Assembly: GCF_000284455.1 (NCBI RefSeq)
Contig: NC_017039.1
Coordinates: forward strand, 2,340,001-2,372,000
Direction: 5' to 3'
DNA from: Synechocystis sp. PCC 6803 substr. PCC-P
GTDB lineage: Bacteria > Cyanobacteriota > Cyanobacteriia > Cyanobacteriales > Microcystaceae
Length of the DNA: 32,000 nucleotides
A model generated the notes under the pieces. The model saw only the letters and a program-made list of their open reading frames with translations, had not been told where the DNA came from and did not search any database. Position numbers and translations under genes: made by a program. The first letter of the stretch is position 1. Every line of letters begins with the position of its first letter. Shown here piece by piece: positions 9,150-26,700 of this stretch.

Positions 9150-12100
9150 ATGCCTAACTCGACCTTGTTCGTCCTCGATTCCCGGGTGTTCCATGGGGGT
9201 CTGCTTCAGGCGGCTACTCTACCCAATATTGCGGTAATAACCCTAGATCCCGACCAAAGCGGTCTCCGGCAGATTACGGAAGCTTTGGGAAGACAAGGCG
9301 CTGTTCGTTCTCTGCATATTCTTTGCCATGGCTCTCCTGGCTGTCTGCACCTAGGTGATGGCCATCTGGGCTTAGATAATTTGGTCTACCACAGTGACGA
9401 GTTAAAAAGCTGGTTTGTCGGGGTTGAGTCTCCCCAACTATTTCTCTACGGCTGTAATGTAGCCGCTGGTGATGCCGGTACGGAATTTATTGAAAAGTTG
9501 GCCGGCTTGGCGGGGGCCGGGGTCTCCGCTTCTACCACGGCGATCGGGCATCAAGCCCTAGGTGGTAACTGGGTTTTAGATTTTCAAAAGGGTGATATTG
9601 TCATGGAAAATATTTTTTCTGCTCCTGAGTTAGCGGCCTATCCCGGCATCTTGGATGGCAATGGGCAATGGTCTTTGTTTGATCTAGTGGACTCCTCTGG
9701 TATCTACACCGAGCGACTGGATGCTCTGCAACCATTAGTACAAGAACAACTTTCCAGCTTTTTTGCCCAATCCGACTATCTCACCCAATTAGCCATTCCT
9801 TTTAGTGCCACTGCCAGCACTGATGACTGGACTAATAATGCGGAATCTTTGCGTTCTTCAATTTCGAACGGTAGTTACCAAATCCGTTTGGAAGTACGTT
9901 CTAGCGCTGAATTACAGGGAGCTTTGGGGGCTTATAGTGCTACGGGAACCACTGATACCCCGACCGTTTATCTCAACGCCGATTGGTTTGCCACTGCCAG
10001 TCAGGAGCAAATTGTTGCTGTCTTACTCGAAGAAATTGGCCATGACTTCGACCAGATTTTAAATGACGGGGCCGATAGCCAAGGCGATGAAGGGGAGATC
10101 TTTGCTAATTTAGTCAAACTAGGGGAAGTTAATCCAACCTATCTAGAAACTCTAAAAACACAAAATGATACTGGCTTTGCTTTTATTGACGGGCAAAAGA
10201 TAAATCTAGAGAATGCAGAAGATACCGTCTTAAATATTAATTTTCAAAACTTTGTATTTAACACTAATTTCACTACATCGACTCCTCCTCCAGGTGTACA
10301 AGAGGTTCGTTTATACACAAACATCATTCCAACTTTCACTACTCAGCAGATTAATGCAAAAGTAACTATAAGAGCTGTTAATATCACAATTGCCAACAGT
10401 ACCATTGATTCTAATGCTTCTAATACAGCAAGGATTCAGCCCCTCATTGATGCCAACGCTACTGGAGGTGGCTATTTTGAGTATCAGTTTGAATTCCAAG
10501 ATACTTTAGGAAATCCCATTTCTCTCAACCAATTTGCTCTGACAGGTATTGATGTTGATGGGAACTCAACAACTGAAAGAGAATTTTACGAAGTAAGCGG
10601 CTACTCCAATTACCAAATTGCTGTAGTTGGACCTCCTCGATTAAACGTTTCTGAATCCACTCAAGGAGATACTAAAACCTTAAGGGTTGATGGTAGGCCT
10701 TCCGTATTAACAGGCATTAGTTTTGACGACACTGCTTCTTTCATTGCCAACTTCCTCACACCTGTTTCATCTCTCACAGTCAGAGCCGGAGTTATCTGGA
10801 ACAATGCAAGTAATGATGTAAGGCAATTTTCTTTTGCTTTAGGAGCCCCACTTGGCACATTTTCAAACCCCCAGACTATTGACACCATTGCCCCCATTGT
10901 CACCAGCATTCTTCGCAATAATCCAACTTCAGAAATAACCAATGCCGATTCTTTAACTTTTCAAGTCACATTCTCGGAAAATGTTCAAAATGTCGATGTA
11001 AACGACTTTATCCTCAGTGGAACCGGCGTAAGCGGCGCTACCATCAGCAATGTTTCTGGCAGTGGGAGTGTTTACACCGTAACTGTCACAGGTATTGCCA
11101 ATAATAATGGAACCGTCAATCTGGACTTTGCCAGTGGACAGAACATACGAGATACCGCCAACAATGCCCTAAGCAATACCACTCCTACAACTGACGAGCA
11201 ATACACTTTAGACAACACAGCGCCAGCTGCCAGCATCACCTTAGATGCGAATATCACCGCCGATGACATCATCAACATTGCCGAGTCAGGACAAGCGATT
11301 CCTATCACCGGCACTGTTGGTGGTGAATTTAATGTTGGTGACACCGTCACATTGACGGTCAATGACAAGACCTTCACTGGTGCAGTCGGTGCGGGTGGTC
11401 TTTTCAGTATCAATGTTCCTGGTAGTGACCTCATTGTAGATGCTGATCTCACCATTGCTGCAAGTATTGCCACCACGGATGCAGCGGGTAATCTCGGCAG
11501 TGCCACCGATAACCAAACCTACACGGTTGATACGACAGCACCGATTCCAATAATCACAGTCAATGATGTCACTGCCGACAACATCATCAATGCTGCCGAG
11601 TCAGGACAAGCGATTCCTATCACCGGCACTGTTGGTGGTGAATTTAATGTTGGTGACACCGTCACATTGACGGTCAATGGCAAGCCCTTCACTGGGACTG
11701 TTGATGCCAATGGTGACTTCAGTATCGACGTTCTTGGTGGTGATTTAGTTAATGGCTCTGACCTGACCATTGCTGCCAGTGTTGCCACTACCGATGCAGC
11801 TGGTAATCCAGGCAGTGCTTCCGATAACCAAACCTACACTGTTGATACCACTGCTCCGACTGTCACCATCAATGCCATTGCGGTTGATGACATCATCAAT
11901 GCCGTGGAAGCAGGTAGTCCTGTTGCAGTCAGTGGCACCACGACTGGTGTTGAAGATGGTCAAGTCGTCACTGTCACCATTGATGGCAATACCTACACCG
12001 CCACCGTTACTGGTAATGCTTGGACATTCAATATCCCTGTCGCAGACATTGCCAACTTTGAAGCGACTGAAGAAGTCGTAGCTACTGTCAGTGATCTCGC

Positions 12101-15100
12101 TGGGAATCCCGCTACCCCTGCTACTCGCAACATCACTGTTGATACGGTTGCACCGGCCGTCACGATTGACAGCATCAGTGATGATACTGGCGCACAAGCT
12201 AATGACTTCATTACCAATGACGACACCCTTGTCTTCAATGGCACTGCAGAAGCAGATAGCACAGTTGTTGTCAGCTTAGATGGTATTGAAATCGGCACTG
12301 TGACTGCTAATGGTGCTGGTGAGTGGACCTTGGATTACACCGGCACCCTCCTGGCAGATGGCGACTATGAGCTGAGTGTGACTGCCACCAATCCCACTGG
12401 CAACAGCGCAACAGCAACTCAAACAATTGTTGTTGATACCACTGCTCCGACTGTCACCATCAATGCCATTGCGGTTGATGACATCATCAATGCCGTGGAA
12501 GCAGGTAGTCCTGTTGCAGTCAGTGGCACCACGACTGGTGTTGAAGATGGTCAAGTCGTCACTGTCACCATTGATGGCAATACCTACACCGCCACCGTTA
12601 CTGGTAATGCTTGGACATTCAATATCCCTGTCGCAGACATTGCCAACTTTGAAGCGACTGAAGAAGTCGTAGCCACTGTCAGTGACCTAGCCGGGAATCC
12701 CGCTACCCCCGCTACTCGCAACATCACTGTTGATACCACTGCTCCGACTGTCACCATCAATGCCATTGCGGTTGATGACATCATCAATGCCGTGGAAGCA
12801 GGTAGTCCTGTTGCAGTCAGTGGCACCACGACTGGTGTTGAAGATGGTCAAGTCGTCACTGTCACCATTGATGGCAATACCTACACCGCCACCGTTACTG
12901 GTAATGCTTGGACATTCAATATCCCTGTCGCAGACATTGCCAACTTTGAAGCGACTGAAGAAGTCGTAGCTACTGTCAGTGATCTCGCTGGGAATCCCGC
13001 TACCCCTGCTACTCGCAACATCACTGTTGATACGGTTGCACCGGCCGTCACGATTGACAGCATCAGTGATGATACTGGCGCACAAGCTAATGACTTCATT
13101 ACCAATGACGACACCCTTGTCTTCAATGGCACTGCAGAAGCAGATAGCACAGTTGTTGTCAGCTTAGATGGTATTGAAATCGGCACTGTGACTGCTAATG
13201 GTGCTGGTGAGTGGACCTTGGATTACACCGGCACCCTCCTGGCAGATGGCGACTATGAGCTGAGTGTGACTGCCACCAATCCCACTGGCAACAGCGCAAC
13301 AGCAACTCAAACAATTGTTGTTGATACCACTGCTCCGACTGTCACCATCAATGCCATTGCGGTTGATGACATCATCAATGCCGTGGAAGCAGGTAGTCCT
13401 GTTGCAGTCAGTGGCACCACGACTGGTGTTGAAGATGGTCAAGTCGTCACTGTCACCATTGATGGCAATACCTACACCGCCACCGTTACTGGTAATGCTT
13501 GGACATTCAATATCCCTGTCGCAGACATTGCCAACTTTGAAGCGACTGAAGAAGTCGTAGCCACTGTCAGTGACCTAGCCGGGAATCCCGCTACCCCCGC
13601 TACTCGCAACATCACTGTTGATACCACTGCTCCGACTGTCACCATCAATGCCATTGCGGTAGATGACATCATCAATGCCGTGGAAGCAGGTAGTCCTGTT
13701 GCAGTCAGTGGCACCACGACTGGTGTTGAAGATGGTCAAGTCGTCACTGTCACCATTGATGGCAATACCTACACCGCCACCGTTACTGGTAATGCTTGGA
13801 CATTCAATATCCCTGTCGCAGACATTGCCAACTTTGAAGCGACTGAAGAAGTCGTAGCTACTGTCAGTGATCTCGCTGGGAATCCCGCTACCCCTGCTAC
13901 TCGCAACATCACTGTTGATACGGTTGCACCGGCCGTCACGATTGACAGCATCAGTGATGATACTGGCGCACAAGCTAATGACTTCATTACCAATGACGAC
14001 ACCCTTGTCTTCAATGGCACTGCAGAAGCAGATAGCACAGTTGTTGTCAGCTTAGATGGTATTGAAATCGGCACTGTGACTGCTAATGGTGCTGGTGAGT
14101 GGACCTTGGATTACACCGGCACCCTCCTGGCAGATGGCGACTATGAGCTGAGTGTGACTGCCACCAATCCCACTGGCAACAGCGCAACAGCAACTCAAAC
14201 AATTGTTGTTGATACCACTGCTCCGACTGTCACCATCAATGCCATTGCGGTTGATGACATCATCAATGCCGTGGAAGCAGGTAGTCCTGTTGCAGTCAGT
14301 GGCACCACGACTGGTGTTGAAGATGGTCAAGTCGTCACTGTCACCATTGATGGCAATACCTACACCGCCACCGTTACTGGTAATGCTTGGACATTCAATA
14401 TCCCTGTCGCAGACATTGCCAACTTTGAAGCGACTGAAGAAGTCGTAGCCACTGTCAGTGACCTAGCCGGGAATCCCGCTACCCCCGCTACTCGCAACAT
14501 CACTGTTGATACCACTGCTCCGACTGTCACCATCAATGCCATTGCGGTTGATGACATCATCAATGCCGTGGAAGCAGGTAGTCCTGTTGCAGTCAGTGGC
14601 ACCACGACTGGTGTTGAAGATGGTCAAGTCGTCACTGTCACCATTGATGGCAATACCTACACCGCCACCGTTACTGGTAATGCTTGGACATTCAATATCC
14701 CTGTCGCAGACATTGCCAACTTTGAAGCGACTGAAGAAGTCGTAGCTACTGTCAGTGATCTCGCTGGGAATCCCGCTACCCCTGCTACTCGTAACATCAC
14801 TGTTGATACGGTTGCACCGGCCGTCACGATTGACAGCATCAGTGATGATACTGGCGCACAAGCTAATGACTTCATTACCAATGACGACACCCTTGTCTTC
14901 AATGGCACTGCAGAAGCAGATAGCACAGTTGTTGTCAGCTTAGATGGTATTGAAATCGGCACTGTGACTGCTAATGGTGCTGGTGAGTGGACCTTGGATT
15001 ACACCGGCACCCTCCTGGCAGATGGCGACTATGAGCTGAGTGTGACTGCCACCAATCCCACTGGCAACAGCGCAACAGCAACTCAAACAATTGTTGTTGA

Positions 15101-18100
15101 TACCACTGCTCCGACTGTCACCATCAATGCCATTGCGGTTGATGACATCATCAATGCCGTGGAAGCAGGTAGTCCTGTTGCAGTCAGTGGCACCACGACT
15201 GGTGTTGAAGATGGTCAAGTCGTCACTGTCACCATTGATGGCAATACCTACACCGCCACCGTTACTGGTAATGCTTGGACATTCAATATCCCTGTCGCAG
15301 ACATTGCCAACTTTGAAGCGACTGAAGAAGTCGTAGCCACTGTCAGTGACCTAGCCGGGAATCCCGCTACCCCCGCTACTCGCAACATCACTGTTGATAC
15401 CACTGCTCCGACTGTCACCATCAATGCCATTGCGGTTGATGACATCATCAATGCCGTGGAAGCAGGTAGTCCTGTTGCAGTCAGTGGCACCACGACTGGT
15501 GTTGAAGATGGTCAAGTCGTCACTGTCACCATTGATGGCAATACCTACACCGCCACCGTTACTGGTAATGCTTGGACATTCAATATCCCTGTCGCAGACA
15601 TTGCCAACTTTGAAGCGACTGAAGAAGTCGTAGCTACTGTCAGTGATCTCGCTGGGAATCCCGCTACCCCTGCTACTCGTAACATCACTGTTGATACGGT
15701 TGCACCGGCCGTCACGATTGACAGCATCAGTGATGATACTGGCGCACAAGCTAATGACTTCATTACCAATGACGACACCCTTGTCTTCAATGGCACTGCA
15801 GAAGCAGATAGCACAGTTGTTGTCAGCTTAGATGGTATTGAAATCGGCACTGTGACTGCTAATGGTGCTGGTGAGTGGACCTTGGATTACACCGGCACCC
15901 TCCTGGCAGATGGCGACTATGAGCTGAGTGTGACTGCCACCAATCCCACTGGCAACAGCGCAACAGCAACTCAAACAATTGTTGTTGATACCACTGCTCC
16001 GACTGTCACCATCAATGCCATTGCGGTTGATGACATCATCAATGCCGTGGAAGCAGGTAGTCCTGTTGCAGTCAGTGGCACCACGACTGGTGTTGAAGAT
16101 GGTCAAGTCGTCACTGTCACCATTGATGGCAATACCTACACCGCCACCGTTACTGGTAATGCTTGGACATTCAATATCCCTGTCGCAGACATTGCCAACT
16201 TTGAAGCGACTGAAGAAGTCGTAGCCACTGTCAGTGACCTAGCCGGGAATCCCGCTACCCCCGCTACTCGCAACATCACTGTTGATACCACTGCTCCGAC
16301 TGTCACCATCAATGCCATTGCGGTTGATGACATCATCAATGCCGTGGAAGCAGGTAGTCCTGTTGCAGTCAGTGGCACCACGACTGGTGTTGAAGATGGT
16401 CAAGTCGTCACTGTCACCATTGATGGCAATACCTACACCGCCACCGTTACTGGTAATGCTTGGACATTCAATATCCCTGTCGCAGACATTGCCAACTTTG
16501 AAGCGACTGAAGAAGTCGTAGCTACTGTCAGTGATCTCGCTGGGAATCCCGCTACCCCTGCTACTCGTAACATCACTGTTGATACGGTTGCACCGGCCGT
16601 CACGATTGACAGCATCAGTGATGATACTGGCGCACAAGCTAATGACTTCATTACCAATGACGACACCCTTGTCTTCAATGGCACTGCAGAAGCAGATAGC
16701 ACAGTTGTTGTCAGCTTAGATGGTATTGAAATCGGCACTGTGACTGCTAATGGTGCTGGTGAGTGGACCTTGGATTACACCGGCACCCTCCTGGCAGATG
16801 GCGACTATGAGCTGAGTGTGACTGCCACCAATCCCACTGGCAACAGCGCAACAGCAACTCAAACAATTGTTGTTGATACCACTGCTCCGACTGTCACCAT
16901 CAATGCCATTGCGGTTGATGACATCATCAATGCCGTGGAAGCAGGTAGTCCTGTTGCAGTCAGTGGCACCACGACTGGTGTTGAAGATGGTCAAGTCGTC
17001 ACTGTCACCATTGATGGCAATACCTACACCGCCACCGTTACTGGTAATGCTTGGACATTCAATATCCCTGTCGCAGACATTGCCAACTTTGAAGCGACTG
17101 AAGAAGTCGTAGCCACTGTCAGTGACCTAGCCGGGAATCCCGCTACCCCCGCTACTCGCAACATCACTGTTGATACCACTGCTCCGACTGTCACCATCAA
17201 TGCCATTGCGGTAGATGACATCATCAATGCCGTGGAAGCAGGTAGTCCTGTTGCAGTCAGTGGCACCACGACTGGTGTTGAAGATGGTCAAGTCGTCACT
17301 GTCACCATTGATGGCAATACCTACACCGCCACCGTTACTGGTAATGCTTGGACATTCAATATCCCTGTCGCAGACATTGCCAACTTTGAAGCGACTGAAG
17401 AAGTCGTAGCTACTGTCAGTGATCTCGCTGGGAATCCCGCTACCCCTGCTACTCGCAACATCACTGTTGATACGGTTGCACCAGCGGTTAATGAGCTTGA
17501 CATCACTGACAACACCGATACCGGCGCAGATGACTTGATTACTAGCAATGGCAATCCTGTCCTCACCTTCACGGGTGAACCTGGACTCACCATCACCCTT
17601 ACCGGTCCGGATGGTGCACTGGCTCCATCTGCTGCCTACACCGTCGCAGAGACACCCAGTGCGAATGGATCTACCTACACTGTCATCCTGCTGGATGCAA
17701 TTCCCAATGGAGAGCCAGATCCCTTTGGTGATTTTGCGAATGGTGTAGCAACCAATAATCCAGACAACACTGGCGACGGCACCTACACCATCGTTGCAAC
17801 CGATGCTGCCGGTAACAGTGTTGAAGTTGATGAGTTTGTCATTGACACCACTCCTCCCAACATTGCTATCACCGCTATCACAAACGACAGTGGCACCCCC
17901 GGCGACTTCATTACCAACGATCAAACCCTGATCTATAGCGGGACAACCGATGCCAATGCCACGGTGACAGTAACCCTCACCGACAGCAGCAACAACCCTG
18001 TCTTCACAGCCACCACCACCGCAGATGCCAATGGCAACTGGTCGCTAGACCGCACTGCCAACGAAACCTTAGCCGGAGGCACTTACACCCTCACGGCCAG

Positions 18101-21100
18101 CACAACGGATCTGGCTGGCAACACAACCACCGATACTCAAGCCATTCGCATTGAAACCAATGCACCAGGCATTGCCATCGCCAGCATCAGCACTGACAGC
18201 GGCATCCCCGGCGACTTTGTCACCAACGACCAAACCCTAGTCATTGCTGGAACCTGGACCAACCTGGATACCAACACCTTGGCAGTGACCTTTAACGGCA
18301 CGACCTATACCTTTGGGGAAAATCCTCAGCTAACAGTCAGTGGCAACAACTGGACCCTAGACCTCAGCGGTATCACCACCCCTCCAGGGGATTACGTCAT
18401 CACTGCTGTCACCACTGACTTAGCTAACAACACCAGCCAAGCCACTCAAAACGTCACGATCGACACCACAGCACCCAATGCCAGCATCACACTGACATCC
18501 AACATCACAGCAGATGATGTCATCAATGCCGTCGAAGCCGGTCAGCTCATTCCGATCACCGGCACCGTCGGTGGCAACGTCAGAGCCGGTGACATTGTCA
18601 CCCTCGCGATCGGTGGTCAAACCTTCACAGGAGCAGTCGCCAATGGTGGTACCTTCAGCATCGATGTTCCAGGTAGCGCCTTAGTCGCTGACCCTGACCG
18701 CACCATTCAGGCCAGCGTCACCACCACCGACCTAGCCGGTAACAGCACCACTGCTACCGACACGGAGAGTTATACCGTAGATACAACAGTGCCCGGAGCA
18801 CCGATTGTCACGATTACGGAAGACGTCAACAATGACGGGCTAATTAGTGTCGGGGAATTGAGTGGGTTAGTGGATGTATCTATAGCTATACCAGGTGGTG
18901 TGGTAGCAGGGGATATCCTGACTATCAGCGATGGCACCACTCCCCAAACCATCGTCTTAACCGCCGCCCAAATCAACGCCGGAGTAGTAACCACCCAGGT
19001 AGCAGTACCCAACCCAGGTACTACTTTAACGGTGACCGCCTTTGTTACAGATATTGCCGGTAACCAAGGTACCAGTGGCCGTGATAGTGCCGTATTAGAT
19101 ACCACCGCTCCCGGAGCACCCACCGTAACGATTACGGAAGATACCAATAATGACGGCTTCATAAGTGCAGGGGAATTGAATGGCCTAGTAGATGTATCGA
19201 TCGCCTTGCCCACTGGGTTAGTTGCTGGGGACACCCTGACCATTAGCGATGGCACCACTCCCCAGACCATTGTCCTCACCACCGCCCAAATCACCGCCGG
19301 AGTAGTAACCACCCAGGTAGCAGTACCCAACCCAGGTACTACTTTAACGGTGACCGCCTTTGTTACAGATATTGCCGGTAACCAAGGTCCCAGTGGCCGT
19401 GATAGTGCCGTATTAGATACCACCGCCCCCGAAGCACCGGTGGTCACGATCGCCGAAGATGCCAATAATGATGGCTTAATCAGTGCTGGGGAATTGAATG
19501 GCTTAGTAGATGTATTGATCGCCTTGCCCACTGGGTTAGTTGCTGGGGACACCCTGACCATTAGCGATGGCACCACTCCCCAGACCATTGTCCTCACCAC
19601 CGCCCAAATCACCGCCGGAGTAGTAACCACCCAGGTAGCAGTACCCAACCCAGGTACTACTTTAACGGTGACCGCCTTTGTTACAGATATTGCCGGTAAC
19701 CAAGGTCCCAGTGGCCGTGATAGTGCCGTATTAGATACCACCGCCCCCGAAGCACCGGTGGTCACGATCGCCGAAGATGCCAATAATGATGGCTTAATCA
19801 GTGCTGGGGAATTGAATGGCTTAGTAGATGTATTGATCGCCTTGCCCACTGGGTTAGTTGCTGGGGACACTCTGACCATTAGCGATGGCACCACTCCCCA
19901 AACCATCGTCTTAACCGCCGCCCAAATCAACGCCGGAGTAGTAACCACCCAGGTAGCAGTACCCGCCGAAGGTGCCACTTTAACGGTGAGTGCATTCATA
20001 ACGGATAATACTGGGAACCAAGGTCCTGATGGCAGCGATAGTGCCGTATTAAACACCACAGCGCCTAATGCCGGCCCCCTGGACATCACTGACGCAACTG
20101 ATACCGGCGCCGATGACTTGTTGAGCAGTAATGGTAACCCCGAACTGACTTTCACTGGTGAACCAGGATTAGAGATTGAGTTGCTTGGGCCTGATGGTAA
20201 CCCTGTTGATCCCGATGCCTATGAAGTGGTAGAAACCCCCGGTGCCAACCCTGGTGACCCTTCCACCTACACAATCAAATTAATTGACGCTGATCCATCT
20301 GACCCAGATAGCGATCCGTTTGGAGACTTCTTCAATGGAGTTGTCACAGGGAACCCTGCCAACACTGGGGATGGAACCTACACCATCACAGCAACGGATA
20401 ATGCAGGCAATACCAACGATGTAGGTCAATTTGAAATTGATACGACTTCTCCCGGTACTCCCAACAATGGCAATTCTCCTTTCAGTCCCCTGGACATCAC
20501 TGACCCAACTGATACCGGTGCCGATGACTTGTTGAGTAGTGATGGTAACCCCGAACTGACTTTCACTGGTGAACCAGGATTAGAGATTGAGTTGCTTGGG
20601 TCTGATGGTAATTCTGTTGACCCCGATGCCTATGAAGTGCTAGAAACCCCCGGTGTAAACCCTGGTGACCCTTCCACCTACACAATCAAGTTAATTGACG
20701 CTGACCCATCTGACCCAGATAGCGATCCGTTTGGAGACTTCTTCAATGGCTCCCCCACAGGTAATGGGGCCAATACCGGCGATGGCATTTACACCATCAC
20801 AGCAACGGATAATGCAGGTAATACCAACGATGTAGGTCAATTTGAAATTGATACGACTTCTCCCGGTACTCCCAACAATGGCAATTCTCCTTTCAGCCCC
20901 CTAGACATCACTGACGCAACTGATACCGGCGCCGATGACTTGTTGAGCGGTAATGGCAACCCCGAACTGACCTTTAGCGGTGAGTCAGGATTAGAGATTG
21001 AGTTGCTTGGGCCTGACGGTAATCCCGTCGATCCCGATGCCTATGAAGTGGTGGAAACTCCCGGTGCCAACCCTGGTGACCCTTCCACGTACACAATCAA

Positions 21101-23513
21101 ATTAGTTGACGCTGACCCTGACCCATCTGACCCGGATAGCGATCCGTTTGGAGACTTCTTCAATGGAGTTGTCACAGGGAACCCTGCCAACACTGGGGAT
21201 GGAACCTACACCATCACAGCAACGGATAATGCAGGCAATACCAACGATGTAGGCCAATTTGAAATTAAGACTAGTTCTCTAATTTCTATCAACGATGATC
21301 GGGGTACCGTTGTCATTGGCGATCTGGGTTTTGGCTCCATCAATGTCGATGTCTTAGCCAACGATCAGGGCTTGGGCATTCAGATCACCAACCTGACCCA
21401 ACCTCTTAAAGGTACGGCGGTGCTGCGGGATAATGGCACCCCCAATAATTTCAGTGACGATTTCTTGACCTATCACATCCATGAAGAGTTATTGGATTTA
21501 CGTTCAGCCACAGGGCCTGTACGCATAGATATCAGTGATATTTTCAGCAGTGCGAGCTACAACAATTCCGTCGGCTTCTATCAAGTTTTGGATCATTTTG
21601 GCACCATTCTTGATCCGGCTTCTGGGCGACTTTTAACCCCGGCAGATCTGGAATACAGAAATGTGGCCCTGGCCAGCGCCATTCCTGGGCTACAAATCAG
21701 TAAGGATAATCCAGTTCAGTCCATTGAACTACCTGGAGGCGGCATCTATGCTCCGTTCCTAACGTCTGACCAGGGTAACGGGCAAGTGAATCACTTCTTC
21801 GCCCTCATTGATGCCAATCCAGGTCAAGTGGACTATGTTCGTTTTGCCAATGGCACCTATAGCTTTGAAGATAGTGCCTTTGGCGATCGAGATTTCAATG
21901 ATCTGCGATTTGCGGTCAATATTTTGCCCCAGGGAGGTTTCGTTCCCCCAGCCATTGGCCTCACCGCTAACGCGGGAGTTTTCACCGCCAATGGGCTCGT
22001 TGATCAATTTACCTACACCATCACCGATGTTAATGGGGATAATCGGACCGCTAGCGTTGCCATTGACAATCAGGAACATCTCAAATTCACCCTGCTGGGA
22101 GTGGACGGAGATTTCAAAAATGAGGTGGCTATTTTCAGGGTGGACGATCGCCAGGGAACTATCAATGGCATTGCCCCAGGACAAGCAGGCTATCTGGAAG
22201 CGGCCTTAAGCAATAGCCAGGTGATATTTACCGGTATCAGTGGACAGACTCAGCTTTTCGGTGAATCCCTGACCCGGACTATGGAAGAATTCAAAGTTAG
22301 TGATAGTTTTGGTTTCCTGTTAATCCAGAATAATTCCCTGGATATGGTGCTCAGAGAGCAGGCCGCCGGGGCCATATCCACTCCGGTTTTCTTCAGTCAG
22401 GCGATCGCCAATGGCAATCAAATCCAACAAATCCCGAGTAATGATGGTCAGGGGATAGTTGTTGCTTGGGAAGATATTGCCCAGGGAGGAGACGGGGACT
22501 TTAATGACTTTATCTTCCGGGTGGCAATGACAGACCAACCGGCTCCCTTGGGGACGCTCTACCAAGGGCAAGCTCAACAGGAGATCTTCGCTAATACGAG
22601 CAATCAAAACGTTCAAATCGGGGTTCAGATCGCCAGTGACTCTGCCTATGACAATACTGTTGGTTTCTACCTGGTTCAAAATGCCCAGGGCACGGTGCTG
22701 GATTACACCACCGGTCAACTGGTCAACCCCGGTGATGCCAACTATGCTGAAGTGGCGGTGCGGCAACGTCTTGCCCTTGGTTCCAACGGCCAACCCATTG
22801 GGGGGGAAATTCGCCCAGGGCAAATTATTGCTCCCTTCCTGATTTCCAATGGCACCGAAAATCAATTCCTGACGGTTAATCCTGTCAACCAGGCGATCGC
22901 CGCTGGCCCCGTTGCCTTCTTTAGCTACATCAATGCCAACCCCGATGGACTGGATCATTTCCGGTTACTGGCGGATAACACCTTTGGGGTGGAAGACATG
23001 TTAGGAGGAGGAGACTTTGACTACAACGACGTGGTCATTAAGTTGGATCAGAATCCTGTTAATCGGGAATTATTGGACCTGCGTTCCCTCAGTGGCTCCG
23101 TAAATCTTGGCATCAACGAAATCACCGGTGATGCTTCCTTTGGGCTCTCCGTTGGTTTTTATCGGGTGGAAAATCAGTTTGGTGCCATTGCGGACCCCCT
23201 GACGGGCCAACTGCTAAACCCTGGTGATGGCAACTATCAAGCCGTGGCGCTGCAAAATACTGCCGCCCAATTTACTGTTACCCCCAGTACCACGACCCAG
23301 GCATTGGAGCTAACCGGGGGGAGCTTGTTTGCTCCTTACCTCACCGTCAGTCAGTCCGACGGCAATGTCTTTAATTACTTCTCCTATCTGGGGGCTAACC
23401 CTGATCAGGCAGATCACATTCGGGTTTTGGGGGATACCTTCCAATTTGAGGATGGCTTCTGGGGGGGAGATATGGACTTTAATGACCTCCAGTTCCGGAT
23501 TAACATCCAATAG
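9150..23513 (+). CDS. Giant (4787 aa) modular Ig-like repeat surface/adhesin-like protein: DUF4347-like N-terminus, about 33 Ig-like modules, cadherin-like segment, 4 x DUF4114-like C-terminal domains
   Basis: Single uninterrupted 14,364-nt ORF. All tandem repeats have periods that are multiples of 3 and stay in frame. The composition is Thr/Val/Asp/Asn/Ala/Gly-rich and acidic, with recurrent TVDTTAP linkers. No hydrophobic N-terminal signal peptide (MPNSTLFVLDSRVFHGG...) and no GGxGxD RTX nonapeptides were seen. No Shine-Dalgarno is evident before the ATG at 9150. Confidence 0.9.
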   Translation: MPNSTLFVLDSRVFHGGLLQAATLPNIAVITLDPDQSGLRQITEALGRQGAVRSLHILCHGSPGCLHLGDGHLGLDNLVYHSDELKSWFVGVESPQLFLYGCNVAAGDAGTEFIEKLAGLAGAGVSASTTAIGHQALGGNWVLDFQKGDIVMENIFSAPELAAYPGILDGNGQWSLFDLVDSSGIYTERLDALQPLVQEQLSSFFAQSDYLTQLAIPFSATASTDDWTNNAESLRSSISNGSYQIRLEVRSSAELQGALGAYSATGTTDTPTVYLNADWFATASQEQIVAVLLEEIGHDFDQILNDGADSQGDEGEIFANLVKLGEVNPTYLETLKTQNDTGFAFIDGQKINLENAEDTVLNINFQNFVFNTNFTTSTPPPGVQEVRLYTNIIPTFTTQQINAKVTIRAVNITIANSTIDSNASNTARIQPLIDANATGGGYFEYQFEFQDTLGNPISLNQFALTGIDVDGNSTTEREFYEVSGYSNYQIAVVGPPRLNVSESTQGDTKTLRVDGRPSVLTGISFDDTASFIANFLTPVSSLTVRAGVIWNNASNDVRQFSFALGAPLGTFSNPQTIDTIAPIVTSILRNNPTSEITNADSLTFQVTFSENVQNVDVNDFILSGTGVSGATISNVSGSGSVYTVTVTGIANNNGTVNLDFASGQNIRDTANNALSNTTPTTDEQYTLDNTAPAASITLDANITADDIINIAESGQAIPITGTVGGEFNVGDTVTLTVNDKTFTGAVGAGGLFSINVPGSDLIVDADLTIAASIATTDAAGNLGSATDNQTYTVDTTAPIPIITVNDVTADNIINAAESGQAIPITGTVGGEFNVGDTVTLTVNGKPFTGTVDANGDFSIDVLGGDLVNGSDLTIAASVATTDAAGNPGSASDNQTYTVDTTAPTVTINAIAVDDIINAVEAGSPVAVSGTTTGVEDGQVVTVTIDGNTYTATVTGNAWTFNIPVADIANFEATEEVVATVSDLAGNPATPATRNITVDTVAPAVTIDSISDDTGAQANDFITNDDTLVFNGTAEADSTVVVSLDGIEIGTVTANGAGEWTLDYTGTLLADGDYELSVTATNPTGNSATATQTIVVDTTAPTVTINAIAVDDIINAVEAGSPVAVSGTTTGVEDGQVVTVTIDGNTYTATVTGNAWTFNIPVADIANFEATEEVVATVSDLAGNPATPATRNITVDTTAPTVTINAIAVDDIINAVEAGSPVAVSGTTTGVEDGQVVTVTIDGNTYTATVTGNAWTFNIPVADIANFEATEEVVATVSDLAGNPATPATRNITVDTVAPAVTIDSISDDTGAQANDFITNDDTLVFNGTAEADSTVVVSLDGIEIGTVTANGAGEWTLDYTGTLLADGDYELSVTATNPTGNSATATQTIVVDTTAPTVTINAIAVDDIINAVEAGSPVAVSGTTTGVEDGQVVTVTIDGNTYTATVTGNAWTFNIPVADIANFEATEEVVATVSDLAGNPATPATRNITVDTTAPTVTINAIAVDDIINAVEAGSPVAVSGTTTGVEDGQVVTVTIDGNTYTATVTGNAWTFNIPVADIANFEATEEVVATVSDLAGNPATPATRNITVDTVAPAVTIDSISDDTGAQANDFITNDDTLVFNGTAEADSTVVVSLDGIEIGTVTANGAGEWTLDYTGTLLADGDYELSVTATNPTGNSATATQTIVVDTTAPTVTINAIAVDDIINAVEAGSPVAVSGTTTGVEDGQVVTVTIDGNTYTATVTGNAWTFNIPVADIANFEATEEVVATVSDLAGNPATPATRNITVDTTAPTVTINAIAVDDIINAVEAGSPVAVSGTTTGVEDGQVVTVTIDGNTYTATVTGNAWTFNIPVADIANFEATEEVVATVSDLAGNPATPATRNITVDTVAPAVTIDSISDDTGAQANDFITNDDTLVFNGTAEADSTVVVSLDGIEIGTVTANGAGEWTLDYTGTLLADGDYELSVTATNPTGNSATATQTIVVDTTAPTVTINAIAVDDIINAVEAGSPVAVSGTTTGVEDGQVVTVTIDGNTYTATVTGNAWTFNIPVADIANFEATEEVVATVSDLAGNPATPATRNITVDTTAPTVTINAIAVDDIINAVEAGSPVAVSGTTTGVEDGQVVTVTIDGNTYTATVTGNAWTFNIPVADIANFEATEEVVATVSDLAGNPATPATRNITVDTVAPAVTIDSISDDTGAQANDFITNDDTLVFNGTAEADSTVVVSLDGIEIGTVTANGAGEWTLDYTGTLLADGDYELSVTATNPTGNSATATQTIVVDTTAPTVTINAIAVDDIINAVEAGSPVAVSGTTTGVEDGQVVTVTIDGNTYTATVTGNAWTFNIPVADIANFEATEEVVATVSDLAGNPATPATRNITVDTTAPTVTINAIAVDDIINAVEAGSPVAVSGTTTGVEDGQVVTVTIDGNTYTATVTGNAWTFNIPVADIANFEATEEVVATVSDLAGNPATPATRNITVDTVAPAVTIDSISDDTGAQANDFITNDDTLVFNGTAEADSTVVVSLDGIEIGTVTANGAGEWTLDYTGTLLADGDYELSVTATNPTGNSATATQTIVVDTTAPTVTINAIAVDDIINAVEAGSPVAVSGTTTGVEDGQVVTVTIDGNTYTATVTGNAWTFNIPVADIANFEATEEVVATVSDLAGNPATPATRNITVDTTAPTVTINAIAVDDIINAVEAGSPVAVSGTTTGVEDGQVVTVTIDGNTYTATVTGNAWTFNIPVADIANFEATEEVVATVSDLAGNPATPATRNITVDTVAPAVNELDITDNTDTGADDLITSNGNPVLTFTGEPGLTITLTGPDGALAPSAAYTVAETPSANGSTYTVILLDAIPNGEPDPFGDFANGVATNNPDNTGDGTYTIVATDAAGNSVEVDEFVIDTTPPNIAITAITNDSGTPGDFITNDQTLIYSGTTDANATVTVTLTDSSNNPVFTATTTADANGNWSLDRTANETLAGGTYTLTASTTDLAGNTTTDTQAIRIETNAPGIAIASISTDSGIPGDFVTNDQTLVIAGTWTNLDTNTLAVTFNGTTYTFGENPQLTVSGNNWTLDLSGITTPPGDYVITAVTTDLANNTSQATQNVTIDTTAPNASITLTSNITADDVINAVEAGQLIPITGTVGGNVRAGDIVTLAIGGQTFTGAVANGGTFSIDVPGSALVADPDRTIQASVTTTDLAGNSTTATDTESYTVDTTVPGAPIVTITEDVNNDGLISVGELSGLVDVSIAIPGGVVAGDILTISDGTTPQTIVLTAAQINAGVVTTQVAVPNPGTTLTVTAFVTDIAGNQGTSGRDSAVLDTTAPGAPTVTITEDTNNDGFISAGELNGLVDVSIALPTGLVAGDTLTISDGTTPQTIVLTTAQITAGVVTTQVAVPNPGTTLTVTAFVTDIAGNQGPSGRDSAVLDTTAPEAPVVTIAEDANNDGLISAGELNGLVDVLIALPTGLVAGDTLTISDGTTPQTIVLTTAQITAGVVTTQVAVPNPGTTLTVTAFVTDIAGNQGPSGRDSAVLDTTAPEAPVVTIAEDANNDGLISAGELNGLVDVLIALPTGLVAGDTLTISDGTTPQTIVLTAAQINAGVVTTQVAVPAEGATLTVSAFITDNTGNQGPDGSDSAVLNTTAPNAGPLDITDATDTGADDLLSSNGNPELTFTGEPGLEIELLGPDGNPVDPDAYEVVETPGANPGDPSTYTIKLIDADPSDPDSDPFGDFFNGVVTGNPANTGDGTYTITATDNAGNTNDVGQFEIDTTSPGTPNNGNSPFSPLDITDPTDTGADDLLSSDGNPELTFTGEPGLEIELLGSDGNSVDPDAYEVLETPGVNPGDPSTYTIKLIDADPSDPDSDPFGDFFNGSPTGNGANTGDGIYTITATDNAGNTNDVGQFEIDTTSPGTPNNGNSPFSPLDITDATDTGADDLLSGNGNPELTFSGESGLEIELLGPDGNPVDPDAYEVVETPGANPGDPSTYTIKLVDADPDPSDPDSDPFGDFFNGVVTGNPANTGDGTYTITATDNAGNTNDVGQFEIKTSSLISINDDRGTVVIGDLGFGSINVDVLANDQGLGIQITNLTQPLKGTAVLRDNGTPNNFSDDFLTYHIHEELLDLRSATGPVRIDISDIFSSASYNNSVGFYQVLDHFGTILDPASGRLLTPADLEYRNVALASAIPGLQISKDNPVQSIELPGGGIYAPFLTSDQGNGQVNHFFALIDANPGQVDYVRFANGTYSFEDSAFGDRDFNDLRFAVNILPQGGFVPPAIGLTANAGVFTANGLVDQFTYTITDVNGDNRTASVAIDNQEHLKFTLLGVDGDFKNEVAIFRVDDRQGTINGIAPGQAGYLEAALSNSQVIFTGISGQTQLFGESLTRTMEEFKVSDSFGFLLIQNNSLDMVLREQAAGAISTPVFFSQAIANGNQIQQIPSNDGQGIVVAWEDIAQGGDGDFNDFIFRVAMTDQPAPLGTLYQGQAQQEIFANTSNQNVQIGVQIASDSAYDNTVGFYLVQNAQGTVLDYTTGQLVNPGDANYAEVAVRQRLALGSNGQPIGGEIRPGQIIAPFLISNGTENQFLTVNPVNQAIAAGPVAFFSYINANPDGLDHFRLLADNTFGVEDMLGGGDFDYNDVVIKLDQNPVNRELLDLRSLSGSVNLGINEITGDASFGLSVGFYRVENQFGAIADPLTGQLLNPGDGNYQAVALQNTAAQFTVTPSTTTQALELTGGSLFAPYLTVSQSDGNVFNYFSYLGANPDQADHIRVLGDTFQFEDGFWGGDMDFNDLQFRINIQ
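9159..9595 (+). other. DUF4347-like N-terminal domain of the giant protein
   Basis: The pattern LFVLDSRV...ITLDPDQSGLRQITEAL...SLHILCHGSPGCLHLG...LYGCNVAAGDAGTEFIEKLAGLAGAGVSASTTAIGHQALGGNWVLD matches my recollection of the DUF4347 signature. That domain heads many giant bacterial adhesin-like proteins. Confidence 0.7.
11215..11840 (+). repeat. Two tandem 315-bp (105-aa) Ig-like modules (TAD(D/N)IIN..ESGQAIPITGTVGGEFNVGDTVTLTVN type)
   Basis: An identical roughly 85-nt block (ccgagtcaggacaagcgattcctatcaccggcactgttggtggtgaatttaatgttggtgacaccgtcacattgacggtcaatg) starts at 11281 and again at 11596, an offset of 315. A third, more diverged copy lies at about 18465..18775. Confidence 0.85.
11841..17465 (+). 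repeat. Higher-order in-frame tandem array: 888-bp unit (A 297 bp + A 297 bp + B 294 bp), about 6.3 copies; 13 A modules and 6 B modules
   Basis: A modules (TTAPTVTINAIAVDDIINAVEAGSPVAVSG...) start at 11841, 12432, 12729, 13320, 13617, 14208, 14505, 15096, 15393, 15984, 16281, 16872 and 17169. B modules (TVAPAVTIDSISDDTGAQANDFITNDD...) start at 12138, 13026, 13914, 14802, 15690 and 16578. Off-frame ORFs in the track recur at exact 888-nt offsets with identical translations except at two sites. Confidence 0.95.
18774..20045 (+). repeat. 4 x 318-bp (106-aa) tandem modules (APxVTIxEDxNNDGLISxGELxGLVDV... type)
   Basis: The boundary motif gtattagataccacc recurs at 19092, 19410 and 19728, with related boundaries at 18774 and 20046. 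Copies 2-4 share long identical blocks in a mosaic pattern. Confidence 0.9.
20079..21275 (+). repeat. 3 x about 411-bp (137-aa) tandem acidic modules (LDITDxTDTGADDLLS...DPSDPDSDPFGDFFNG...GDGTYTITATDNAGNTNDVGQFEIDTTSPGTPNNGNSPFSP)
   Basis: L-D-I-T-D starts at 20079, 20490 and 20901, an offset of 411. The third copy carries a 2-aa insertion (DPDPSDPDSD). A diverged fourth copy lies at about 17485..17850, immediately after the 888-bp array. Confidence 0.9.
22401..22408. repeat. HIP1 octamer GCGATCGC (one of only two inside the giant gene)
   Basis: Exact GCGATCGC read directly from the sequence. Confidence 0.95.
22893..22900. repeat. HIP1 octamer GCGATCGC (second of two inside the giant gene)
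   Basis: Exact GCGATCGC read directly from the sequence. Confidence 0.95.
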
Positions 23514-23757: not shown

Positions 23758-26700
23758 ATGTTGCTGAGTATCTCCAACGTTTTCATCAAAAACCCCGTGC
23801 TGACTACGGTGTGCACCATCGTGATCATCCTCCTCGGGGCGATCGCCTTACCCCTCCTGCCCCTGGCCAAACTTCCAGACATGGCCCCCAAACAGGTGCA
23901 GGTAACCACCAACTATGTGGGCTCCGATGCCCAAACTGCAGTGGATAATGTCACCACTGTGCTAGAGCGGCAGATTAACGGTACGGAGCAAGTCATTTAT
24001 ATGAACTCCACCACCGACAACACTGGCACTAGCACCATCAACGTCTATTTCCCGGTGGAAATGGACCGCAACATTGCCCAGGTACTCGTCCAAAATAACG
24101 TGGCGATCGCCGCTTCCAGTTTGCCGGAAGTTGTCAACCGCCAGGGGGTAACGACCCAGACCCAATCCCCCTCTGTCACCATTGCCTATGGGGTTTACTC
24201 AGAAAACGATGACCAGGGCAAACCGATCTATGACGACATCTTTGTCAGTAACTTTGTTGACCGGGTGTTGCTGGATGAAATTAAACGGATTGACGGGGTG
24301 GGTTCGGCCATTTTAATTGGGGCTTCTGAATATGCCATGCGTTTTTGGCTAGACCCCGATGCCTTGGCCGCTAGGGACTTAACCGCGGCCGATGTTACCA
24401 ACGCCATTCGGAGCCAAAACATTCAAGTGGGGGTAGGGGGGGTTAACCTGCCGCCGGTCACTGATCAACAACGTTTCCAAATTAATGCCCGGGCCCTGAG
24501 TCGCTTTACCACCCCGGAAGAAGCGGAACAAATTGTCGTCAAAGTGGGGGATGATGGTACTCTCATTCGTATTAAAGATGTGGGGAGGGCCACCATTGGT
24601 ACCCAAAACTATATTCAAACTGCCCTGTTCAATAACGCCCCGGCAGTGGCATTTGTTATCTATCAACTGCCCGGTACCAATGCCCTAGACACGGCCAACA
24701 TGGTCAAGGAAAAAATGGCGGAGTTACGGCCCCTATTTCCCCCTGGTCTAAATGCAGAGGTAGCTTTGGATAACACCCTGTTTGTGACGGCATCTTTGGA
24801 AGAAGCGGCCCTGACCCTAATTGAAGCCATTTTGCTGGTAATTTTAGTGATTTTTATCTTCCTACAAAATTGGCGTACTACCCTAATCCCAGCCCTGGCC
24901 ATTCCCGTATCTTTGATTGGGGCCATGGCCTTTGCCCTAGCTTTTGGTTTTAGCTTGAACCAGTTGACCCTGTTTGGGGTAATTCTGGCCACTGGTCTCG
25001 TGGTGGATGACGGTATTTTGGTGGTGGAGGCGATCGAGGTAAAACTGGATCAAGGCATGAAGCCATTCCAGGCCGCCCTAGATGCCATGGGGGAACTAAC
25101 GGGAGCCGTAATTTCCACCTCTTTGGTGTTGATGGCTGTGTTCATCCCTGTGACATTCTTCCCAGGTACTACGGGGATTGTTTATAAGCAATTTGCTGTA
25201 ATTATGGCTTCGGCGGTAGCGGTATCTACTTTTAATGCCATCAGTTTTTCCCCTAGTATGTCCGCCATTTTAATGCGGCCCAAAAAAGAGGTCCATGGCC
25301 CCCTCGCTTGGTTTTTCAATCTTTTTAACCGCACCTTTGACTGGTTAAAGGAACGCTACGGCAATATTATCACGGCAATTTTAAAGGTCAGACTGCTGGC
25401 TATTCCCATTTTTATTGGCAGTTTAATCCTCACAGTAATTGTCTATAACATCACCCCCACTGGGTTTATTCCCGAAGAAGATCAGGGGTATTTTTTCATG
25501 TTGGGCAACTCCCCCGCCGGTGTGTCTATTGAGTACACTAAAGATGTGATTTCCCAAGCAACGGAAATTGTCTCCGCTCGCCCAGAGGTGGAACATGTGC
25601 TGGGTATGGGGGGCTTTAGCTTTTTAGGCAATGACAGTAGTAAATCCCTCTTTTTCGTCAAGCTGAAAAATTGGGACGAACGCCCCGGGCAAAAGGGGTC
25701 TGTGTTCGGTCTGTTGGCAGAAATTAACCGAGAGTTAGCTCAAAAAATTCCCGATGCCCAGGTGTTTGCCGTTAATGCTCCCCCGGTGGACGGCCTTAGT
25801 AGCACAGGGGGTCTGGATTTTTACATCCAAAACCGGGGTGGTATGCCCCTGGAAAATTTCTTGGACTATGTCCAGCAATATATGGAAAAGCTGCGCCAGG
25901 AACCGGCTCTCAATCCCCGTACGGTTTTTACCCAATTTACCTTTAATGCTCCCTTGTTAGAAATTGGGGTGGATCGGGAAAAGGCCAATGCCCAAAATGT
26001 TGATATTTCGGAGGTGTTCAACACCATTGGTATTTACATGGGGTCTAGCTATATCAACCAATTTGTGATGGAAAGCCGGCTTTATCAGGTGTATGCCATG
26101 GCCGATGGGCAATTCCGTTCTAATCCCCGGGATATTGGTCGCCTTTATGTCCGTTCCCGCACTGGGGCTTTAGTTCAGCTCAGCAATTTAATTGATGTTA
26201 AACAAACCACCTATCCCCCGATTCTGACCAATTTCAATATTTATCCGGCGGTGGATGTCCAGGCTTCTCCGGCGGCGGGCTACAGTACGGGGCAAGCCAT
26301 GGCAACCATGGAAAGGTTGTCTAAGGAGATGTTCCCCGATTCCATTGGTTATGCCTGGTATGGTACGGGCTATGAAGAATTGCAATCGGCGGGGGCGGCT
26401 CCGATCATTTTTGGTTTAGCCTTCATCATGGTGTTCCTGGTACTCTCAGCCCAGTACGAAAGTTACGTGGATCCCGCCATTATCATGATGACTGTTCCCC
26501 TAGCTATTCTCGGGGCGATCGGGGCGATTTTACTGCGGGCCAACTTTATGGTAGCCACCAACATGGTTTGGCCCACGGTAAACAACAATGTTTACGCCCA
26601 GGTAGCCTTGGTTATGTTAATTGGTCTAGCTAGTAAAAACGCCATTTTGATTGTGGAATTTGGTAATCAGGCTATGGATTTGGGCATGAAAATTCCCCAG

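Follow-up and report, generated by a model that had tools for sequence, protein, structure and literature searches.

The window analysed here, a 32-kb stretch of DNA from Synechocystis sp. PCC 6803, carries a giant gene whose product of 4787 amino acids (aa) joins a DUF4347 head, a long stalk of immunoglobulin (Ig)-like modules and a tail of DUF4114 units. The open reading frame (ORF) starts with ATG and is intact, and the probability that 4787 codons remain free of stops by chance is about 1e-100. A preliminary description of this DNA had proposed a single uninterrupted ORF of this length and suggested that older annotations may divide it into slr0364 and slr0366; both points proved correct. 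In the old record of 1996 the merged gene slr0364/slr0366 appears as slr0364 of 3029 aa and slr0366 of 1742 aa, a split which three resequencing papers ascribe to a 1-bp database error (PMC3190959, PMC3276265, PMC3514855) and which comparison with the old proteins places at window position ~18075. The product matches AGF52383.1/BAK50872.1 and others exactly, the identical 4787-aa protein has been deposited under several separate Synechocystis accessions, and orthologues with 65-77% identity are present in other Synechocystis strains. The equation of slr0364 with Pgk in one report (PMC6801645) was rejected as a mislabel, pgk being a different gene.

The protein has a mass of 489.9 kDa and a pI of 4.05, with 611 Asp and Glu versus 83 Lys and Arg residues and only three Cys, all of them within the DUF4347 head. 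It is expressed and present outside the cell. AGF52383.1 (4787 aa) was quantified in the Synechocystis exoproteome in 2024 and tabulated under 'Putative T1SS substrates', T1SS being the type I secretion system (PMC11424642), and RNA-seq detected a low transcript level (~5.6 reads per kilobase per million, RPKM) that was raised 2-4.6-fold in a lexA mutant (PMC4759255). The merged protein appears in the supplement of the exoproteome study under its NCBI accession, not under a locus tag or UniProt id, and its listing as a putative T1SS substrate is based on composition alone. The view that such proteins are essentially uncharacterised must hence be corrected for this one, and a silent or interrupted gene, an outcome that had also been envisaged, is contradicted by the transcript, the exoproteome detection and the intact ORF. 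Two further giants of Synechocystis with a DUF4114 annotation, slr0408 (4199 aa) and slr1028 (3972 aa), were quantified in the same exoproteome, and slr5005 (3797 aa) is another listed putative T1SS substrate (PMC11424642). The domain architecture expected for the giant protein, with DUF4347 at the head, some 33 Ig-like modules in the stalk and DUF4114 in four tail units, was upheld by Pfam, NCBIfam and alignments (Table 1).

The DUF4347 head and the region behind it

DUF4347 (PF14252) was recognised at aa 7-168 with an E value of 2.4e-45 (154.6 bits versus a gathering cut-off of 24.6), which confirms the DUF4347-like head that had been anticipated. The first 580 aa as query retrieved at least 164 relatives, nearly all cyanobacterial, in which DUF4347 is always located near the N-terminus and starts within the first ~90 residues. 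Column conservation, computed over 55-118 relatives, revealed D10, H60-G61, P63-G64, Y100, C102, G107, G110, S128 and W141 among the invariant positions, and the pattern His60-Gly61 ... Tyr100-Gly-Cys102 is the His-Gly ... Cys arrangement of the caspase/CHAT type. An AlphaFold2 (AF2) model of residues 1-180 (pLDDT 92.3; pTM 0.88) has the caspase-hemoglobinase alpha/beta fold with the His after one strand and the Cys after the next, strand 1 of DUF4347 beginning already at residue 5. The top Foldseek match of this model in the PDB was 9qpe_G, which is Tce1 (E 1.7e-5; TM 0.56; 17% identity), followed by caspases 1/3/7/8, the TPR-CHAT protease of Craspase, legumain and CED-3. In a profile alignment H60 and C102 were placed opposite residues 77 and 131 of the Tce1 chain, and since the resolved chain is taken to begin at residue 110, they would correspond to His186 and Cys240. 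On this model the head is a clan CD domain of the caspase/cysteine protease domain (CPD) type with an intact and putatively catalytic His60/Cys102 dyad.

Tce1 (PA0256) is a member of the DUF4347 family that Hcp3 of the H3 type VI secretion system (H3-T6SS) of Pseudomonas aeruginosa takes up as cargo. Together with a second Hcp3 cargo, Tce2 (PA2372), it has been termed a putative cysteine protease resembling the CPD of TcdB, and the toxicity of Tce2 in yeast depends on its predicted active site (PMC13323088). The protease-like nature of small DUF4347 effectors is in this way already known. What appears new relative to the literature is that the DUF4347 heads of hundreds of cyanobacterial proteins ending in repeats-in-toxin (RTX) blocks or DUF4114 share the clan CD fold and the dyad, and no account of DUF4347 on adhesins was found in the searchable literature, where this domain appears in just four papers.

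The module following the head had been described as lacking a known family, and aa 170-590 indeed gave no match in Pfam, NCBIfam or the PDB. The relatives P0049 and P0050 cover ~60% of the first 580 aa, and P0047 and P0048 are ~60% identical across ~30% of this 580-aa query. Giant signal-less proteins without a DUF4347 head likewise possess the 'LLEEIGH' module, at a distance of ~100-150 residues from their N-terminus, and a motif survey identified it as the N-terminal module of P0047, P0048, P0174, P0184 and P0295. The motif itself resembles the metzincin HExxH with the first His replaced by Glu. The DNA of this region is low in GC, with 0.394 for window positions 10001-11000, encoding aa ~285-620 of the giant protein, versus ~0.50 elsewhere.

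The Ig-like stalk and the DUF4114 tail

The estimate of about 33 Ig-like modules was substantiated. An iterated profile detected 28 full modules between aa 688 and 3633, and together with one Big_12 module and four 'LDITD' modules of 125-137 aa these add up to 33. NCBIfam assigned 24 stretches to Ca_tandemer and 17 to Ig_like_ice, both of them models built on the Ca2+-stabilised extenders of RTX adhesins, and the Pfam families matched were Big_13, Big_12 and Big_6. The extender is in this respect a tandem array of Ca2+-type Ig-like modules as expected of an RTX adhesin. Each of four 106-aa modules, repeated with a period of 318 in Tandem Repeats Finder (TRF), contains one canonical EF-hand loop of the form D-x-N-x-D-G-x-I-x-x-x-E, located by regular expression (regex) at aa 3225, 3331, 3437 and 3543 and matched by Pfam EF-hand_5 (E 3.8e-9). 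The 'LDITD' modules (TRF period 411) carry Asp/Pro-rich loops, the fourth copy being found at aa 2774-2899. The cadherin-like segment with VDVLANDQG that had been suggested behind the stalk was supported weakly, by scores to Big_9 (E 0.011) and Cadherin_4 (E 0.054).

Part of the extender is built of an 888-bp unit encoding three Ig modules (A-A-B), present in ~6.4 copies of which successive ones differ at only 5 positions. A 5326-bp deletion has been reported within the gene in the GT-W substrain (PMC4867675), and it maps to window positions ~11868-17194, or 6.0 units of 888 bp within the array. The repeat array explains this 5.3-kb deletion and, since whole repeat units were lost, the length of the stalk is evidently unstable in laboratory strains. 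Short-read assemblies cannot fix the copy number of the 888-bp repeat, and the near-identical array is a warning that the length of the protein differs among laboratory substrains.

DUF4114 (PF13448) was matched by Pfam in three stretches (149.1 bits versus a gathering cut-off of 27), and alignment resolved the four tail units that had been proposed, each ending in D-[FY]-N-D, at aa 4248, 4450, 4624 and 4776, in the order A-B-A-A. The residues E-D ... G-D-x-D-x-N-D are invariant across the four, units 2 and 3 each end in E-D-x(3-5)-G-D-x-D-[FY]-N-D, and the protein terminates 8 residues beyond the D-F-N-D motif of unit 4. A word-index search with one unit retrieved only itself, and an exhaustive profile search was used instead. 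The four-unit profile, run against 1.84 billion proteins, yielded 2564 cluster representatives at E <= 1e-3 and 496 at E <= 1e-30. Among the best 150 relatives of this search, to which the following counts refer, the two-unit B-A arrangement was found in 106, and in 107 a unit ended <=6 residues (mostly 0-2) from the C-terminus. A signal-peptide-like N-terminus was present in almost none of these proteins, while 13 had DUF4347 heads and 12 had RTX motifs; where RTX motifs are present they form an N-terminal or central block, with the pair usually at the very end. The cargo of the pair comprises cadherin, VCBS, Calx-beta, FG-GAP, legume lectin, cyclophilin and ubiquitin-like domains. The conserved B-A pair as the usual C-terminal end of many signal-less exoprotein candidates appears to be new relative to the literature. 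The idea that the pair is itself a C-terminal export signal was downgraded, since it is located near the N-terminus in 29 collected DUF4114 relatives (two sets of relatives pooled), which argues for an autonomous module that is not merely a terminal signal.

Units 2 and 3 were modelled by AF2 as two beta-sandwiches (pLDDT 87.7). Foldseek gave no PDB match at E 1e-3 for this model, and the single-domain matches with the highest probability and target-normalised TM (TMt) were RS-IIL, LecB and BclA (probability 0.69-0.75; TMt 0.50-0.56), the D-x-D-[FY]-N-D motif matching the Ca2+ loop of LecB. DUF4114 has been related to LecB-type Ca2+-dependent lectins, and its Ca2+ site is needed for motility of Myxococcus that depends on extracellular polysaccharide (EPS) (PMC9109919); the lectin-type matches obtained here agree with this relation. 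A lectin-like nature of the DUF4114 units is moderately supported by the model.

The best matches of a model of aa 4300-4640 in a viral library were DUF4114 proteins of Yasminevirus, Hokovirus and Orpheovirus, giant viruses that infect amoebae, with a Synechococcus phage tail-fibre-like protein lower in the match list. In the metagenomic protein P0277 (L006 10001-11557) a ubiquitin-like domain and Rad60-SLD are fused to a C-terminal DUF4114 B-A pair, and its gene sits among ~25 small unannotated ORFs with UvrD helicase, AAA_24 and DUF932, a phage- or mobile-element-like setting. The small proteins P0337, P0338 and P0340 (L009 10001-11638) combine N-terminal RTX repeats with a terminal DUF4114 pair, and the gene for P0337 has PhoD, PhoX and phytase-like genes around it, suggestive of a phosphate-scavenging secreted set.

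Table 1. The giant gene and its modules: window positions, strand and supporting evidence
Feature	Position	Strand	Evidence
Whole gene, merged slr0364/slr0366, AGF52383.1	9150..23513	+	ORF, exact protein match, composition
DUF4347 head, aa 1-175	9150..9674	+	Pfam, invariant columns, AF2, Foldseek
'LLEEIGH...GDEGxIF' module, aa ~176-340	9675..10169	+	Motif survey, relatives
Module without family match, aa ~341-579	10170..10886	+	Low GC; relatives P0047/P0048
Extender, ~33 tandem Ig-like modules, aa 580-4039	10887..21266	+	NCBIfam, Pfam, iterated profile
888-bp higher-order repeat within extender	11837..17482	+	Repeat analysis; GT-W deletion (PMC4867675)
Four 106-aa Ig-like modules with EF-hand loops	18780..20054	+	TRF period 318; EF-hand_5; regex
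Three 137-aa 'LDITD' modules	20052..21266	+	TRF period 411
Short cadherin-like/Big_9-like segment (VDVLANDQG), aa 4040-4112	21267..21485	+	Weak Pfam scores
DUF4114 unit 1, type A, aa 4113-4262	21486..21935	+	Pfam, alignment
DUF4114 units 2+3, canonical B-A pair, aa 4308-4636	22071..23057	+	Alignments, AF2, Foldseek
DUF4114 unit 4, type A, aa 4640-4787	23067..23510	+	Alignment

Export and the proposed mechanism

The absences noted in the preliminary description all held, in that no signal peptide, no RTX repeats, no PEP-CTERM/LPXTG-type ends and no T1SS genes in cis were found. Position 9150 is the first start codon downstream of an in-frame stop, and the ORF is therefore not extendable upstream, which makes an N-terminal extension with a signal peptide impossible. 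A motif scan detected neither GG.G.D nor a looser variant anywhere in the 4787 aa, and Pfam gave no PF00353 match. That no export route is recognisable was nevertheless overstated. At least two GGxGxD motifs, forming classical RTX blocks, are carried by 51 of 120 DUF4347-headed relatives, with the last motif mostly ~75-105 aa from the C-terminus, and RTX proteins that end in the DUF4114 pair also exist; the occurrence of DUF4347 heads on RTX proteins points to T1SS, which in Synechocystis is encoded elsewhere in the genome. Seven neighbourhoods of DUF4347/DUF4114 relatives were devoid of T1SS genes in cis, the sole exception being a C39-type ATP-binding cassette (ABC) gene 6 kb off in one of them (L001). 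Some of these relatives carry RTX repeats themselves, and adjacency of an exporter, being uninformative, was rejected as a guide to the export route. The T1SS membrane-fusion protein (HlyD) Sll1181 is present in the same exoproteome data, and that study also cites the role of TolC-like Slr1270 and of T1SS in S-layer deposition, while stating that it is not known by which main channels proteins cross the outer membrane of cyanobacteria (PMC11424642). The composition of the giant protein, which is signal-less, acidic, poor in Cys and rich in Ca2+ motifs, is likewise of the T1SS type. Export most likely proceeds via a type I secretion system encoded elsewhere in the genome.

The giant ORF is flanked by sll0350 and slr0369, and genes for DciA, an aldehyde dehydrogenase, a histidine kinase and others are also found in the window. 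The product of slr0369 (23758-27009, +), which starts 245 bp downstream of the giant gene, was rejected as the exporter, as it is a small-molecule permease of the AcrB-type resistance-nodulation-division (RND) family; no membrane-fusion (AcrA/HlyD) gene adjoins it and its partner proteins are therefore encoded elsewhere. The product of sll0350 (5326-7737, -) contains a full DUF3769 and a weak LptD_N/LptA-like stretch, and is a candidate cyanobacterial LptD-type outer-membrane protein. A PAS-GGDEF-EAL gene for turnover of cyclic di-GMP (c-di-GMP) is located at 23-1882 (+), 7 kb upstream of the giant gene; LapA-type adhesins are under c-di-GMP control. Between these, a 535-aa ORF at 1978-3585 (+) gave no Pfam or NCBIfam match and lies in a stretch with an AT skew of -0.245.

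The protein is probably a giant, very acidic, Ca2+-dependent T1SS-type adhesin of the cell surface or the extracellular space with non-canonical ends, and we extend this judgement to a mechanism in three parts. That the protein is extracellular, modular and adhesin-like is more certain than its export route. The chain would leave the cell unfolded and C-terminus first through the Sll1180/Sll1181/Slr1270 type I system encoded elsewhere. Once exported, its DUF4114 units, EF-hand loops and Ig linkers would bind Ca2+ and fold, and this Ca2+-driven folding would render export irreversible, which is the role of RTX repeats in canonical substrates. The stiffened Ig stalk, in the order of 100-150 nm, would present the C-terminal lectin-like units to sugar ligands, which could be EPS, lipopolysaccharide (LPS) or glycans carried by other cells or surfaces. 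The DUF4114 units may in this way serve both as extracellular folding element and as ligand-binding tip, with the head and the LLEEIGH module as the cell-proximal end. More speculatively, head and LLEEIGH module could exit last or never, which would keep the protein anchored to the envelope, and the His60/Cys102 dyad could cut the chain, in cis or in trans, for maturation or release.

One may tentatively go a step further and suppose that the head cleaves itself to release the adhesin, such that it would fold before leaving the cell, jam in the T1SS as the rear end of the chain, keeping the adhesin on the surface, and then shed the stalk by a cut of the dyad; the chances of this particular version are low. 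If true, the head would be a cis-encoded counterpart of LapG/LapD, and hundreds of cyanobacterial proteins with RTX or DUF4114 ends would share it. In connection with this, the terminal B-A pair may be a Ca2+-driven folding and recognition module replacing RTX in a large class of signal-less cyanobacterial exoproteins. The gene, its merged form, the presence of its product in the exoproteome and the suggestion of T1SS are already in the literature. The nomination of the locus as the prime candidate for a novel surface system did not find support, as the protein is most likely a giant Ca2+-dependent adhesin of the T1SS type, in a variant without RTX, and not a new kind of surface system.

Several observations weigh against the adhesin and its proposed mechanism. 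With respect to export, the C-terminal RTX repeats expected of such adhesins are absent and a T1SS C-terminal signal, which in classical substrates is uncleaved and occupies the last ~60 residues, is not recognisable, the last 150 aa being a DUF4114 unit, nor was any ABC, HlyD or TolC gene found within the 32-kb window. The N-terminal location of the DUF4114 pair in 29 relatives shows that the pair is in itself no C-terminal export signal, and detection in the exoproteome could also stem from shedding, vesicles or lysis. With respect to the tail, the LecB-type Foldseek matches are weak (E 0.08-0.25), hhalign against a LecB sequence aligned the Ca2+ loop only (probability 2%), and PDB sequence and profile searches with DUF4114 units gave no usable match. 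With respect to the head, no toxicity was seen for Tce1 itself (PMC13323088), the protease activity of any adhesin-borne DUF4347 domain is putative, and a role of the N-terminus in retention or release is suggested by analogy. Finally, a substrain tolerates the loss of 6 repeat units, by which no essential function is implied.

The same modules could be those of a secreted effector or toxin, with the clan CD head as payload, a lectin tail targeting the glycans of grazers or competitors and the Ig stalk as a spacer. Among DUF4347 proteins only injected effectors have been characterised, the toxicity of Tce2 in yeast requires its active site, and the invariant dyad of the head argues for catalysis over a passive plug. 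However, no translocation or pore-forming module was present among the Pfam and NCBIfam matches, and many DUF4347 relatives consist just of the head, cadherin/LVIVD and RTX. DUF4114-type folds in amoeba-infecting giant viruses and the finding of the giant protein in the medium would fit an effector, but a stalk of 33 Ca2+-type Ig modules is a hallmark of adhesins, and a toxin is on balance unlikely.

It is likewise doubtful that the protein is exported independently of T1SS, either by an unrecognised system reading the terminal DUF4114 pair or by outer-membrane vesicles or shedding. Such a route would be in keeping with the lack of knowledge about the main cyanobacterial outer-membrane protein channels (PMC11424642), and a terminal unit in 107 of the 150 best relatives, almost all signal-less and with very diverse cargo, is the pattern of a sorting domain, but no conserved partner gene emerged across the seven neighbourhoods. 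The pair is moreover N-terminal in 29 relatives, and RTX co-occurs both with the pair and with DUF4347 heads. In LecB-type lectins the terminal carboxylate helps to bind Ca2+, and such a carboxylate would explain the terminal position without sorting. A dispensable, decaying or assembly-inflated repeat gene without present function is highly improbable: although its transcript level is low, no phenotype was reported for the 5.3-kb loss in GT-W and repeats as alike as the 888-bp units are easily misassembled, the 14.4-kb ORF is uninterrupted against odds of ~1e-100, the identical protein recurs under several separate accessions and was detected by mass spectrometry, GT-W lost a whole number of repeats (6.0 x 888 bp), and orthologues of 65-77% identity exist.

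The T1SS-type adhesin proposed here would place a caspase-fold domain at the retention-module position of such adhesins and lectin-like Ca2+ units at the RTX position. The architecture is widespread, with at least 164 DUF4347-headed relatives and ~2,560 cluster representatives carrying a DUF4114 unit, and as the protein already reaches the medium in a model organism it is a tractable case for both end-domain ideas. The outer-membrane passage of large proteins and cell cohesion also bear on flocculation, biofilms and harvesting of cyanobacteria.

Comparison with known systems

In one paper slr0364 is named 'swmB' (PMC4867675), which is a label only. Likened by description, the SwmB of marine Synechococcus WH8102 (10,791 aa), involved in motility, is also a giant repetitive cyanobacterial surface protein detected in the exoproteome. 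Unlike the swimming host of SwmB, Synechocystis moves by type IV pili.

The head shares its Pfam family with Tce1, which is also the closest solved structure (PDB 9QPE) and to whose His186/Cys240 the dyad was aligned. Tce1 and Tce2 are cargo of 190-310 aa fitting the Hcp ring, whereas the domain here heads a chain of 4787 aa, and the Hcp-ring route is therefore impossible for the giant protein. The C80 CPDs of TcdA/TcdB and MARTX are internal and are activated by inositol hexakisphosphate (InsP6) in the host cytosol, unlike the N-terminal head described here, and the CPDs of TcdB and MARTX were not among the 50 Foldseek matches listed for the head model. In the PA-IIL/LecB lectins two Ca2+ ions are bound in an E-D...D-x-D-x-N-D loop to which the sugar also binds, and the motif occurs in all four tail units. 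The units resemble LecB, RS-IIL and BclA in having a small beta-sandwich with the acidic D-x-D-[FY]-N-D loop close to its C-terminal end, and they resemble the DUF4114 domain of Myxococcus PilY1.1, in which the Ca2+ site is needed for EPS-dependent motility (PMC9109919). Unlike the PA-IIL/LecB lectins, the units are of ~150 aa, have long insertions and occur as B-A pairs in one chain, and the similarity is below usual significance.

LapA of Pseudomonas fluorescens, MpIBP of Marinomonas primoryensis and SiiE of Salmonella typically have an ABC transporter, a membrane-fusion protein and an outer-membrane factor encoded adjacent to them, whereas the present giant protein is without an RTX nonapeptide block and without exporter genes alongside. 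LapA-type adhesins possess an N-terminal retention module with a LapG cleavage site, compared here by description; unlike in LapA, the N-terminus is a DUF4347 caspase fold. With RTX adhesins the protein shares the long array of Ca2+-type Ig modules (Ca_tandemer, Ig_like_ice) and the ligand-type modules near the C-terminus, and like LapA, MpIBP and SiiE it is giant, signal-less, very acidic and almost free of Cys.

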